Shown here: one piece after another, positions 16,197 through 44,693 of the stretch | How the letters are laid out: each line of letters begins with the position of its first letter | Numbering within the stretch: position 1 is the stretch's first letter | IMG/VR virus record: IMGVR_UViG_3300031772_000001 | Coordinates: 64,001-128,000 of that record | Origin: a virus | Length of the DNA: 64,000 bases | Strand: one strand, 5' to 3' | Made by a program: the position numbers and the translations under genes | The notes under the pieces: generated by a model | The model's input: the letters and a program-made list of their open reading frames with translations, nothing else | Databases searched by the model: none | What the model was told of the DNA's origin: nothing

Positions 16197-16271
16197 TTGC
16201 GGGAACTGGATTTGAACCAGTGATGCATGGTTATGAGCCATGTGTCTTAGACCGGGCTAGACGACCCCGCA
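16197..16271 (-). tRNA. tRNA-Met(CAU), CCA not encoded
   Basis: acceptor TGCGGGG/TCCCGCA, D-stem GTCT/AGAC, anticodon arm CATGG-CTCATAA-CCATG, T-arm ACTGG-TTCAAAT-CCAGT. Confidence 0.9.
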
Positions 16272-31652: not shown

Positions 31653-32042
31653 TCATACGCCTTCTGGTTTTTTACACACTACCCTATCCCGAAAGAAAGG
31701 CTCATCACAATCCTCAAGACGAGCAAGGTTTGGTACTTCAATTTTGAACTTCTTACACATAGGAATACGGATATTTTCATACTGATCACTAACCACAAGA
31801 TCAAGAAACTCACACCCCCGGCACGTCCCATCCTCTACCTTGAAAAAAGAAAACTTCCGAGCCACATTCTTAGCGAAGTACGAACCCACGGAAGGAGCAC
31901 CCAGACACTCGATAAACACGTTCTCCGGCACGTCATGGTACTCGTACAAAGAACCATTCGTAAACGCGGCATGGAGTACCTGCTTACTTGCAATGTATCC
32001 CAAAGAACTAACATTAGAAGATTTAACTGGAATCAACTTCAT
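31653..32042 (-). CDS. KTSC domain protein with Cys-rich tail
   Basis: PVKSSNVSSLGY...F.NGSLYEYHDVP...APSVGSYF. Confidence 0.88.
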   Translation of the reverse strand: MKLIPVKSSNVSSLGYIASKQVLHAAFTNGSLYEYHDVPENVFIECLGAPSVGSYFAKNVARKFSFFKVEDGTCRGCEFLDLVVSDQYENIRIPMCKKFKIEVPNLARLEDCDEPFFRDRVVCKKPEGV

Positions 32043-32065
32043 AATCCTACCTCCCTATAAAACAA

Positions 32066-32085
32066 TACGAATATTTCACAAAAAA
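32066..32085 (-). promoter_or_regulatory. candidate phage-specific promoter TTTTT-N11-CGTA(TTGT)
   Basis: motif copy upstream of the KTSC-SPFH operon. Confidence 0.5.
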
Positions 32086-32091
32086 GAAAAG

Positions 32092-32130
32092 AAAAAGTGA
32101 GGGGCAGAGGGTCATTCCCTCCACCCCTTT
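32092..32130 (-). terminator. intrinsic terminator
   Basis: AGGGGTGGAGGG-aatga-CCCTCTGCCCCT then T-rich run. Confidence 0.8.
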
Positions 32131-32131
32131 C

Positions 32132-32326
32132 TCAGCTACCCGACGATAGACTCCATGCACGGTATCCTCGGAAAAGAGAACAGTCTACCATAATCTGCCG
32201 TTACACAGGGGCTTTTTTAGGTACAGAGCATAACGCTCCCTGTACTTTGTTAGCCCGAAGCCGTCCAAAGATGTAAAGCTCCTACGTGAACGATCTCAAT
32301 ATTCAATGAAGTAGCATAAATCCTCC
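32132..32326 (-). ncRNA. candidate structured RNA beginning with RBS + 4-codon ORF
   Basis: GGAGGA-TTT-ATG CTA CTT CAT TGA; internal hairpins with G-U pairs. Confidence 0.5.
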
Positions 32327-32337
32327 AAAATCAAAAA

Positions 32338-32500
32338 AGAAACAAGATAACAGGGTTCTGCACGTTTACTCCCTACATTATCGGAAGCTGGTTTGCACTT
32401 TGCAGACAAGAAAGGGTTCCCTCAAAAAGTGCTGAAAGTCATCCCGAAAGATGGCAGTCAACAATGTTCCCACCTTTGCCACACCCTATTACTTGTTTCT
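32338..32500 (-). ncRNA. candidate small RNA with ~18-bp closing stem
   Basis: AGAAACAAG-UAAUAGGGU / ACCCUGUUAUCUUGUUUCU + U-tract; internal UUCG hairpin. Confidence 0.6.
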
Positions 32501-32504
32501 CTTG

Positions 32505-33026
32505 TTATACGATTTCAACGTACTCACTCATCAGGTTTATTGCCTCGTGATACCCGTCACATCTTGGCAACCTCTCGTAAAACTCGTCTGCCCTATCACC
32601 AAGACCAGCCCGATTGAGAGTCTTACCCACCTTCCCGGCAAGAACAAACACATTACCATCACCCTCAAGCAGCTTACACTCAGGCTTCAAAACCTCTACC
32701 TTCGGAGACTCCTCAGTCACTTGTTTTTGAAAATACTGAAGAGACTCGGAAGGTATCAACTCCCGATTATTCCGAAAATAATCATCATCCCAAGAAAAAC
32801 CACCCTGAAGATGCATTGGATGTATGGCGAGCTTCGGAATATCCTTGTCATCAAACTCAACAAGAACATCACTTCGTCCACCTTCACCACCCTTTCCGGG
32901 CATAGTATTAAACTGGTGAATGATCTTCGGAGAAGTAAAACCCAACTCAACAAAACCGCCGTAAAGCCCCTTCTTGTCCTCATCCGACTCAACAAGCAGA
33001 CCAATCATCACCGCTCTCGTTGACAT
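32505..33026 (-). CDS. hypothetical protein
   Basis: 173 aa; C-terminal DGNVFVLAGKV...L..AGL...YVEI module. Confidence 0.65.
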   Translation of the reverse strand: MSTRAVMIGLLVESDEDKKGLYGGFVELGFTSPKIIHQFNTMPGKGGEGGRSDVLVEFDDKDIPKLAIHPMHLQGGFSWDDDYFRNNRELIPSESLQYFQKQVTEESPKVEVLKPECKLLEGDGNVFVLAGKVGKTLNRAGLGDRADEFYERLPRCDGYHEAINLMSEYVEIV

Positions 33027-33054
33027 ACAACATCCTTTTCTTAAAAGTTAAAAA

Positions 33055-33215
33055 GAAAGGTTGACAACACCGCCGAGCGAAGCGAAGCCCTTGCAGGGGC
33101 CAAGGATTTATCAGTTGGAAATCTGCAACTTTCCCACTGTTTTAGCCTTGTGAAAAATTTGCTCATCACCCACATGCCATTTACGGTCAGAGGATCTGTA
33201 AGCTGTCAACCTCTC
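33055..33215 (-). ncRNA. candidate small RNA, 12-bp closing stem
   Basis: GAGAGGUUGACA/UGUCAACCUUUC + UUUU. Confidence 0.6.
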
Positions 33216-33226
33216 AAAGAACAAAA

Positions 33227-33348
33227 TGGCAGTAGACGTTAGCCTGATCGTCAACAAAAGACTTATGCTTCAGTTACATTGCTGTAACCAAGCCCTGTAC
33301 TCCACAACCATCCTTCTCAAATCAAGCCTTTGCCGTTGTCTACTGCCA
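33227..33348 (-). ncRNA. candidate small RNA, 11-bp closing stem
   Basis: UGGCAGUAGAC/GUCUACUGCCA + UUUU; GCAA tetraloop hairpin. Confidence 0.62.
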
Positions 33349-33361
33349 AAAACTTCTGTAA

Positions 33362-33452
33362 AATGGTGTGGAAGGCAACCTGCCCGATACGGTTGTTGTC
33401 TAAGAACCGCCGTCGCTTGATCGCATCCCTTAGACGGAATTTCCACACCATT
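33362..33452 (-). ncRNA. candidate small RNA, three-way junction
   Basis: AAUGGUGUGGAA/UUCCACACCAUU, GUCUAAG/CUUAGAC, CAACC/GGUUG. Confidence 0.62.
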
Positions 33453-33477
33453 CTATAAAAGTCTTCAACAAAAATCT

Positions 33478-33669
33478 TCAACAATTCACAGAATTAGGAT
33501 GGGAGTCGTAATCTTCGTAATCCTCCTCTACCTTCTCCGTTAATACCAACGGTGATGGACGTTCACACTGTATATACGAAACTGGCACGCAACCATCACA
33601 GTTTAATGGGTCGCGTTTGTATTGATCACAAATCACAAGTACCTCCCACTTCGTCACTCCCTTAGTCAA
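33478..33669 (-). CDS. hypothetical protein
   Basis: 63-aa ORF. Confidence 0.45.
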   Translation of the reverse strand: MTKGVTKWEVLVICDQYKRDPLNCDGCVPVSYIQCERPSPLVLTEKVEEDYEDYDSHPNSVNC

Positions 33670-34156
33670 CAGAACCCTCGTTCAGGTAATACTCTATCTG
33701 TATAGCAGCTTCTTGGTTCCGTGCATGTATTGTTATGTCTGCGTAAGCGTTCCTCACATTATACGCTTTTGACCCGTCAGACAGTAACTCTTCCTGCACC
33801 GCCCACGAAGGATTCTTCACAGTCACAAACAACCTCACTTCCGATTGCTGGAATTGACTGCGTGATTGATAGCCGATTGCTTGTCTAAATAAGTGGCAAT
33901 TAACCGATCATCCGTAGCACCACGAACCACGTACCGCCCCACCTCATAGGTCACTCTTCGAGTACCACACAAGAAAGGACGAAAGTAACTGACAGGATCA
34001 AAGGTGTTCTTCATTTGGACCCCTCATGGTATCCGGCTTTGAAGTCACGGACAGCCCCGCGAACCAAAGAGACAACCACAAAAACCATTAAGACCAAAAC
34101 AAGAAAAACACCCACACCAAACCTCCAATTTTTCTTCTTTCCCCTCTTACATCTCT

Positions 34157-34185
34157 AATATACCACAAACCAGAAGCAATGTCAA
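34157..34185 (-). promoter_or_regulatory. sigma70-type early promoter TTGACA-N17-TATATT
   Basis: 17-bp spacer, TG extension, purine-rich UTR. Confidence 0.8.
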
Positions 34186-34191
34186 GTAGAA

Positions 34192-34452
34192 TCACGAAAA
34201 ATCTTTGACCAACTCCATAATGTCTCTGAGCCTTACCATCTTCCACGGCTCAGGAACATCCCACCCCTCCGGCACTGGATCTAAGCACTGGTGCGGCTGA
34301 CCTTTCTCAAACGGTCGCTTCCATCCACACTCACCACAACGCGGGTAAATCTCTCCATAGTGATTAGTCTGGTGCGAACTCACCGCCCCACACTTGAGGC
34401 ACCTGTACGACTTGTAACTCATCTTCCCCGTAACTCTCTTCGCTTCTGACAT
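34192..34452 (-). CDS. Zn-ribbon early protein
   Basis: CLKCG...TNHYGEIYPRCGECG. Confidence 0.65.
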   Translation of the reverse strand: MSEAKRVTGKMSYKSYRCLKCGAVSSHQTNHYGEIYPRCGECGWKRPFEKGQPHQCLDPVPEGWDVPEPWKMVRLRDIMELVKDFS

Positions 34453-34455
34453 CTT

Positions 34456-34575
34456 TACCTCCCTTATTTTTTCTTCTCTTTCCCGTCTCTTTCCCGTCTC
34501 TCCCCTGTCTCTCTTACACCTTTAATATACACCTTATTTGGATGCTTGTCAATAGAAATCTTCAAAAACTTTTGA
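34456..34575 (-). repeat. 120-bp promoter/UTR/RBS cassette, copy 2 (TTGACA-N17-TATATT at 34552-34524)
   Basis: near-identical to 27560-27679. Confidence 0.92.
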
Positions 34576-34593
34576 GGGTTGTAAGTGATTGAT

Positions 34594-35109
34594 TTACATA
34601 GGCATTAGATCATCCATAGAGTCCATCTTCAACTCCACATCATCGTAATGAATCAAAAAATATTCATTGCACCCGGCATTGATCGAACGCACCGCCAAGT
34701 CCTGGAACATCACTATATCCCCCACAACCACGTTAGGACAGTGGTACATTCGTCCCTTTGGCACCTCCACTACCTGCTGACCAAACGAGTTTCTTTTACC
34801 CCCACCTTGCGACCAGTACACAGACGGACCCCCAAGCCGGACCACCCTACCAATTCTCCACACACGCCAACACGTAGAGGGGATAATCAACCCTACCTTT
34901 GTTTTAACTTCTTTTTGAATAGGCTCAATCATTATATATGGGCCAATAATCTTAATCATGTCCGCTACAACCAAACTCCGGCCACATCCCAGACACTTCC
35001 GGGCTGCTCTCGCCTCGGCGTTAATTTTTTCAAAATTATCGTCTTCAATCTTGAACTCCTTCGTACCAAGGCAATACCTACAAGCATAAACATCTTCCTT
35101 CGTAACCAT
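34594..35109 (-). CDS. GroES-like co-chaperonin with N-terminal Zn finger
   Basis: IIGPYIMIEP...KTKVGLIIP...GRVVRLG...VVGDIVMF...YFLIHYDDV. Confidence 0.75.
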   Translation of the reverse strand: MVTKEDVYACRYCLGTKEFKIEDDNFEKINAEARAARKCLGCGRSLVVADMIKIIGPYIMIEPIQKEVKTKVGLIIPSTCWRVWRIGRVVRLGGPSVYWSQGGGKRNSFGQQVVEVPKGRMYHCPNVVVGDIVMFQDLAVRSINAGCNEYFLIHYDDVELKMDSMDDLMPM

Positions 35110-44143: not shown

Positions 44144-44280
44144 AGAGAAACAGAACATTATATGTATGAGTGTTAGCCTTCTCCACTATGGTATTATCCA
44201 TAAAGGATTGAGCCAATTGACTCCGAAGAAAAGAAGAAGGTAGGAGCATCACCAAACACTCCAATAAACAAAGAAACAAG

Positions 44281-44693
44281 TGGAGGTGGGGGGAATTGAA
44301 CCCCCGTCCAGAAAATACTCAATATTGACATCTACGTGTGTAGTCTCAGTTAAGTGTCATGATAAGTATACTGAGGCCAAAATACTTACCACCAAGTTTC
44401 AGGTATTTTTCGGTGCTTTATGTCATGAAACCACCCACTTGCACCTAACCCTACTTTCGCCCACACACTCGGATACTTGTGTGGGCTAGTCACCTTTAGT
44501 TAGGCGACGCTGACAACTGGCATCGCCAGATCACACATCGCCGCGAAGCGAAGCGCAAAAGCAACACCAGCGTTGACCGTCGATTTCTCGGCAGCTAACA
44601 TCTCCCCCGGACGATTTATGAGGCCAACCGGGAGAACCCTCCTCAACACGCAGTCAATACTTTATACATTCTGTCGAAAACCAGATCACCCCC
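44281..44693 (-). ncRNA. ssrA: tmRNA
   Basis: 5' GGGGGTGATCTGGTTTTCGAC; 3' GACGGGGGTTCAATTCCCCCCACCTCCA; G3-U70 pair; tag frame 44592-44500 after UAGCU. Confidence 0.93.

Follow-up and report, generated by a model that had tools for sequence, protein, structure and literature searches.

The window analysed here, 64 kb of DNA, comprises bases 64001-128000 of a 167,660-bp IMG/VR virus record whose ends are direct terminal repeats, and nearly all genes of this source phage lie on the minus strand. Its major capsid protein is of the Gp23 family (PF07068), which marks the phage as a distant, uncultivated T4-type virus; it also encodes a family A DNA polymerase, a DnaB-type helicase, a SNF2 helicase, a flap nuclease and an ATP-dependent ligase. 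Within a segment flanked by a KTSC-domain gene and a GroES-like gene, a gene-free stretch of about 400 bases (33055-33455) folds on the minus strand into three separate stem-closed domains, here called units A, B and C. Along that strand, a promoter-like site is followed by three small ORFs, units A, B and C, a 173-aa ORF, two non-coding elements and a terminator (Table 1).

Table 1 Features of the locus, with other RNA genes of the window and the related element of the sister phage (G001)
Feature	Coordinates	Strand	Description
GroES-like gene	34594-35109		Flank of the array segment
Sigma-70-type promoter-like site	34157-34185	-	TTGACA, 17-nt spacer, TG-TATATT; 11/12 hexamer matches
59-aa ORF	33835-34014	-	Small overlapping ORF upstream of unit A
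58-aa ORF	33662-33838	-	Small overlapping ORF upstream of unit A
63-aa ORF	33478-33669	-	Small overlapping ORF upstream of unit A
Unit A helix, 5' arm	33441-33465	-	From inverted-repeat search
Unit A	33359-33455	-	Three-way junction: 15-bp inner closing stem and two hairpins
Unit A helix, 3' arm	33349-33373	-	Ends one base before the unit B closing stem
Unit B	33227-33348	-	11-bp closing stem (33338-33348 with 33227-33237), second 9-bp helix, conserved core
Unit B conserved core	33246-33318	-	Common to the sister phage; nhmmer and pair comparison
Unit C	33055-33215	-	14-bp closing stem (33202-33215 with 33055-33068), multi-branched interior
173-aa ORF	32505-33026	-	Directly downstream of unit C; strong coding score
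Two non-coding elements	32132-32500	-	After the 173-aa ORF, same transcription unit
Canonical intrinsic terminator	32100-32128	-	12-bp stem, 5-nt loop, U run
KTSC-domain gene	31653-32042		Flank of the array segment
tRNA-Met	16197-16271		ARAGORN/Rfam
tmRNA	44278-44693		ARAGORN/Rfam
B' (G001)	86542-86649	coding	Between a 75-aa ORF and a 215-aa ORF

The promoter-like site is likely the start of a transcription unit, and the terminator likely its end. Scanning of the minus strand detected no further sigma-70-like site from 34185-34157 down to the terminator at 32128-32100, and no canonical terminator over the same interval; sigma-70 promoters belonging to unit B or C themselves were considered and did not appear in the scan. 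Nor does any canonical intrinsic terminator, defined as a compact G+C-rich hairpin with a 3-8 nt loop and a direct U run, lie within 33040-33470. A lone promoter upstream and a lone terminator downstream make co-transcription of the units with the upstream small ORFs plausible. A first reading of the DNA from its letters alone (the sequence-only reading) had named this early promoter as the probable source of the array; the site is near-consensus and the only one found upstream, and transcription of the units from it may plausibly follow. None of the three small ORFs matched a family in PHROG or Pfam. The C-terminal part of the 173-aa ORF matches phrog_1933. As a separate observation, nhmmer gave no relative in the sister phage for either of the two non-coding elements beyond this ORF.

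The folding of the array is strong and strand-specific. For the minus strand of 33040-33470, the minimum free energy (MFE) is -151.4 kcal/mol (z -5.07), and 0 of 100 shuffled sequences folded as well; for the plus strand the value is -118.8 (z -3.78). The minus-strand fold is thus favoured by 32 kcal/mol, and it contains 21 G-U pairs versus 9 in the plus-strand fold, which makes the structure specific to the minus-strand RNA; the sequence-only reading had taken G-U pairs and a GCAA tetraloop to favour that strand. Each unit also folds on its own, as had been proposed, with z values of -5.02 (A), -4.35 (B) and -3.26 (C). For comparison, the mean z is -0.19 (sd 1.11) for 160 stretches of 120 nt drawn at random from this strand of the genome; 2.5% of them reach z -3.3, and 0 of 160 reach z -4.3. 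Three such folded units side by side are well beyond chance. The unit sizes of 91, 122 and 161 nt and the spacers of 13 and 11 nt are as originally given (the span folded for unit A is about 97 nt), and a U-rich run does follow every closing stem.

The array shows no sign of coding. A codon-usage score trained on the long ORFs of the source phage shows a flat or negative course over 33060-33465 in each of the three frames; it is clearly positive over the 173-aa ORF and mostly weakly positive over the small upstream ORFs. The idea of hidden small ORFs in the array was rejected for want of a coding signal. Known RNA families were likewise not recovered: ARAGORN found no tRNA in 33040-33470, and no Rfam 15 family reached its gathering threshold over the array, the tRNA-Met and tmRNA genes being the only ones that pass in the window and the sole finds of either program there. 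With the cmscan limit relaxed to E 10 over 32900-33700, the best sub-threshold Rfam match had an E value of 1.4, and no tRNA was among the matches.

Unit A, folded alone, has an MFE of -40.3 and a centroid of the same shape, in agreement with the three-way junction described earlier for the 91-nt unit. Its closing stem is the inner part of a far longer helix, in which 24 of 25 positions are paired on the minus strand (21 Watson-Crick and 3 G-U pairs, with 1 mismatch); on the plus strand the same arms have 3 mismatches. This helix is the longest inverted repeat of the window and absorbs the 13-nt 'spacer' between A and B. It provides the near-uninterrupted double-stranded RNA of about two turns (>=20 bp) that defines an RNase III substrate, and on the predicted fold it is a plausible RNase III site. 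The closing stems of units B (11 Watson-Crick pairs) and C (14 pairs, including 2 G-U) fall short of that length. Closing stems of 11-12 bp had been attributed to all three units; this figure holds for B, at 11 bp, but underestimates A (15 bp, in a helix of 25 positions) and C (14 bp). A tandem direct repeat, UGUUGAAGAYUUUU x2 (33457-33484, minus strand), spans the stop codon of the 63-aa ORF (33480-33478). Its second copy forms the outer 5' arm of the long helix, and its UUGUUG recurs in the conserved single-stranded tail of unit B.

Unit C (folded as 33050-33217) has an MFE of -57.7. On its 3' side lie a U-rich run and then the ribosome-binding site of the 173-aa ORF, whose start codon is about 25 nt from the end of the unit. 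Unit B (folded as 33225-33350) has an MFE of -43.9. In its core, three helices are stacked on one another and separated by internal loops that are conserved (GG opposite GAA), and the 3' side carries an unpaired UUGUUGA. An AAGGCUU/AAGUCUU pairing had been suggested within this unit; it does not occur in the MFE structure, and comparison with the sister phage favours GAAGGAU/GUCUUUU instead.

A search of 5.8 billion proteins identified a sole close relative of the source phage, the JGI phage IMGVR_UViG_3300036774_000066 (G001, the 'sister phage'), the whole record of which was read for comparison. The DNA polymerases of the two are 73% identical and the capsid proteins 94%; the next relatives stand at 65%, and then at 40% or less. 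No other close relative emerged from IMG/VR when the 173-aa ORF and the DNA polymerase were used as queries, and no cultured or deposited phage matched the locus by blastn. The 94% identity of the Gp23-family capsid protein (gene at record positions 149622-151055, outside the window) compares with 40-80% for most other proteins, suggesting that the capsid is under exceptionally strong constraint or that its gene was exchanged recently. Non-coding gap sequence amounts to 7.8 kb in the source phage versus 3.9 kb in G001, about twice as much.

Gene order around the locus is kept in G001. The segment from the KTSC-domain gene to the GroES-like gene, however, holds unrelated genes there; the RNA array is absent, as is a homologue of the 173-aa ORF anywhere in the sister phage. 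The content of window positions 32042-34594 and of G001 99507-102725 differs completely. Judged from these two genomes, the KTSC-GroES segment is a hot spot of gene and RNA turnover. Three unrelated, independently folding, non-coding modules lie in this fast-changing early region.

One of the three units has a counterpart elsewhere in the sister phage. With unit B as query, nhmmer returned one match in G001 (86551-86644, coding strand, E 0.006-0.013), here called B'; the reverse search of the source genome with B' returned unit B only (E 0.022), so that the two are reciprocal best matches. The gap that contains B' is one of just 13 non-coding gaps in G001 and lies within a 3.8-kb block specific to that phage. 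B and B' share 79% identity over their inner cores. Both sequences retain every one of the 13 core pairs (26/26 cells), with 2 double (compensatory) and 2 single compatible changes, and pairing falls to 35-58% when the core partners are slid by 1-3 columns. The core pairing is that of unit B's own MFE structure; enforcing it in B' costs 2.7 kcal/mol. In the covariation comparison, 137 of 500 shuffles do as well, a measure that cannot reach significance with just two sequences. Compensatory changes in relatives had been named earlier as a check on these structures: they are present at two pairs of unit B in this single relative, and units A and C are without relatives.

The outer parts of B and B' tell a different story from the cores. 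The closing stem of B' is GGGAGGGG/CCCCUCCC, followed by five U, and it has no sequence similarity to that of unit B; in both elements a terminal stem precedes a U run. Together with the kept core pairs, this pattern is suggestive of a real conserved RNA domain held in an interchangeable clamp stem. The conserved internal loops inside variable stems further suggest that unit B binds a protein, and the survival of the core in two phages, at different loci and with a replaced stem, suggests that the RNA behaves as a portable module.

B' had no match in Rfam. Two readings of its surroundings were tried and set aside: a link through the neighbouring proteins of B and B', which was dropped as those proteins are not homologous; and B' as a stand-alone promoter-to-terminator gene, which was dropped because the TTGACA/TATACT pair ahead of B' has a spacer of 15 nt and is absent from the promoter scan list. 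Directly after B' lies a UCCUC...GAGGA hairpin (G001 86516-86541). The 215-aa ORF that follows has no Pfam match and resembles a methyltransferase only by eye.

The search for further members was extended with covariance models for A (R1), the B core (R2) and C (R3), which were run on both genomes and on 12 further Gp23-related IMG/VR records. Nothing beyond B/B' was found; neither R1 nor R3 had a relative in the sister phage or in the 12 records. Searching IMG/VR for the B core by pattern brought up G001 alone, plus chance matches in coding DNA. From metagenomes, a scan with the core's 5' half yielded conserved coding motifs, with no family member among the at least 118 loci listed, and a scan of GTDB genomes with the 3' half gave 17 chance matches, all at 22 bits or less. 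As far as these searches reach, the B family appears to have two members, and units A and C appear to be orphans so far.

Based on these findings, we lean tentatively towards reading the array as a set of accessory RNA modules that would be made early in a polycistronic transcript, then be cut out, and act in trans. First, transcription from the promoter at 34185-34157 would cover the units as well as the small ORFs upstream of them. Endonucleases of the host would subsequently release the units from the mRNA and from one another: RNase III may cut the 25-position helix that closes unit A, and RNase E-type cuts or partial (leaky) termination may occur at the A/U-rich tracts after each closing stem. 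This would leave stable small RNAs, about 90-160 nt long, shut and protected by their terminal stems and acting in trans, with a protein recognising unit B through its conserved loops. The folds, their strand, the lack of a coding signal and of a catalogued family, and the core of unit B kept at another locus of the sister phage are observed; co-transcription, processing, stability and a trans-acting role are inferred.

Since the array is embedded among the ORFs of an mRNA operon, we rate a role in cis almost as highly as one as free small RNAs; taken by itself, we consider it possible though unlikely. The units would then be intercistronic elements of the early mRNA, namely processing or stability determinants or leaky stem-plus-U attenuators, and would have no function as free RNA; they would uncouple the 173-aa ORF from the small ORFs before it and determine its expression level. 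Several features of the layout fit such a role: B and B' both lie between a small and a mid-sized ORF, every closing stem leads into a U-rich run, unit C stops just ahead of the ribosome-binding site of the 173-aa ORF, about 25 nt before its start, and the hairpin after B' could mask the ribosome-binding site of the next gene, the 215-aa ORF. However, three large multi-branched domains far exceed what processing or termination needs, and the same operon already has a compact canonical terminator elsewhere. The genes downstream of B and B' are unrelated. Moreover, the inner loops of B are conserved and its outer stem is not, which speaks for a structure that is recognised and not for a simple cleavage hairpin.

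The trans-acting reading can be carried further in two ways. Improbable as it is on present evidence, the units might be mobile 'RNA-only accessory genes' that pass from one phage genome into the early operons of another and act as decoys against host defence or RNA-degrading enzymes, with a replaceable terminal stem clamping a core that binds a protein; if this were true, B and B' would be the first two members of such a family. The other is a counter-defence role, which narrows the trans-acting reading to a more novel form and to which we give little credence: the RNAs would be early host-takeover decoys, gained and lost like accessory genes, that sequester or misdirect a host nuclease, a defence sensor or an RNA chaperone. 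The position in an early operon would suit such decoys, as would the conserved internal loops, which suggest a protein-binding site. B lies in the KTSC-GroES block specific to the source phage and B' in the 3.8-kb block specific to G001, so the same RNA core occurs at different loci. Against a decoy role, the units have no similarity to any known decoy RNA, and known family members number two only.

Two further alternatives are barely credible. Degenerate or unusual tRNA-like genes, whether the remnant of a tRNA operon or mimics processed by RNase P or RNase Z, would account for the layout with short spacers, which the sequence-only reading had likened to a tRNA operon, and for the CCA triplets that it had noted near the 3' ends of two units; T4 offers a parallel, since rnaD and rnaC directly follow tRNA-Arg there, with spacers of 1 and 6 nt. 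The layout stands, but nothing else about the array is tRNA-like: ARAGORN, and Rfam at E up to 10, find no tRNA (RF00005) in it, and cloverleaf, T-loop and anticodon arm are lacking (the last two absences as first reported), whereas T4 rnaC has a canonical T-loop. The CCA triplets do occur in A and B, but they are base-paired within the closing stems and leave no free 3' tail, and the genome has real tRNA and tmRNA genes elsewhere.

Elements acting at the DNA level, such as integron-type recombination hairpins, miniature inverted-repeat transposons or a replication origin, are just as hard to credit: inverted repeats do bound each unit, in a variable region of a genome that has a hairpin-bounded cassette array elsewhere, but the G-U pairs make the fold strand-specific, no unit has a second copy in the source genome and neither A nor C has one in G001, no core motif was seen in common with the cassette-region repeats, there is no AT-rich or iteron pattern and GC skew is unchanged, the searches run came upon no insertion or recombination junction with these terminal repeats in other genomes, and the B family conserves its interior and not its terminal repeats, the opposite of a transposon.

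Many small RNAs of large phages are unexplained, and T4 rnaC and rnaD are still without known function decades after their discovery. To this inventory the locus adds three uncatalogued folds packed in one early operon. Should the modules turn out to be processed and stable and to bind proteins, they would form an RNA equivalent of the small accessory proteins with which phages take over hosts. For the present, with so tiny a family, the value of the locus is that of a well-defined candidate.

Known systems resemble the array in part. RNase III excises stem-closed units from polycistronic precursors, as in 16S/23S rRNA precursors, 23S intervening sequences and T7 early mRNA. Unit A is similarly enclosed by a near-perfect helix of 25 positions formed from its own flanks, but its cargo is a 60-nt two-hairpin junction, and the stems of B and C, at 11-14 bp, are short. 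Neither the source phage nor G001 encodes an RNase III. A search for RegB found no gene and, having no positive control, shows little.

Among the small RNAs processed from mRNAs of prophage or phage operons is DicF, an antisense RNA that is short, has known targets and is released from the dicB operon mRNA by host RNases. The units share with it the position of a small RNA embedded between the ORFs of an mRNA operon, and we propose release for them too; they are larger and multi-branched, and no target complementarity was found for them in the phage genome. Antisense targets there were sought and rejected, the longest match being 13 nt, with nothing beyond chance. Y RNAs of the YrlA type, partners of Ro60/Rsr, also form arrays of different RNAs closed by long stems of their 5' and 3' ends, whereas the units lack a tRNA-like domain, a common handle motif and an Rfam match. 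No TROVE (Ro60) gene is present in the source phage or G001, nor did either match RVT_1, the reverse transcriptase that a retron msr-msd RNA would have next to it; control genomes matched in both searches. In the customary genomic sense, the units are neither Y RNAs nor retron RNAs.

The closest likeness is to T4 rnaC (species 1, 139 nt) and rnaD (species 2, 119 nt). T4 species 1 RNA is reportedly cut by RNase III in vitro. As here, a phage with a Gp23-type capsid carries different small structured RNAs of about 120-160 nt, head to tail within a longer transcript and in tandem with short spacers (1 and 6 nt in T4; 13 and 11 nt here). In contrast, the T4 pair adjoins tRNA genes, while units A-C lie between protein genes, far from the phage tRNA; and the T4 RNAs are late, while units A-C stand behind an early-type promoter. 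The function of rnaC and rnaD is still unknown, and they are classed as late (PMC9697503). Homology was considered and rejected: blastn gave no match, and model R2 scored at most 4.7 bits within rnaC/rnaD, its best score anywhere in the T4 region being 11.9 bits. T4 rnaC carries GGUUCGAAUCC, and no such sequence occurs in units A-C. In our folding of the T4 RNAs, rnaC reached z -4.6, with a canonical T-arm CCGGGUUCGAAUCCCGG, and rnaD folded no better than shuffled sequence (z -0.8). The array is a set of three uncatalogued folds that resembles T4 rnaC/rnaD in layout and logic, not in membership; by analogy, it would belong with an already known kind, the small stable phage RNAs embedded in longer transcripts.
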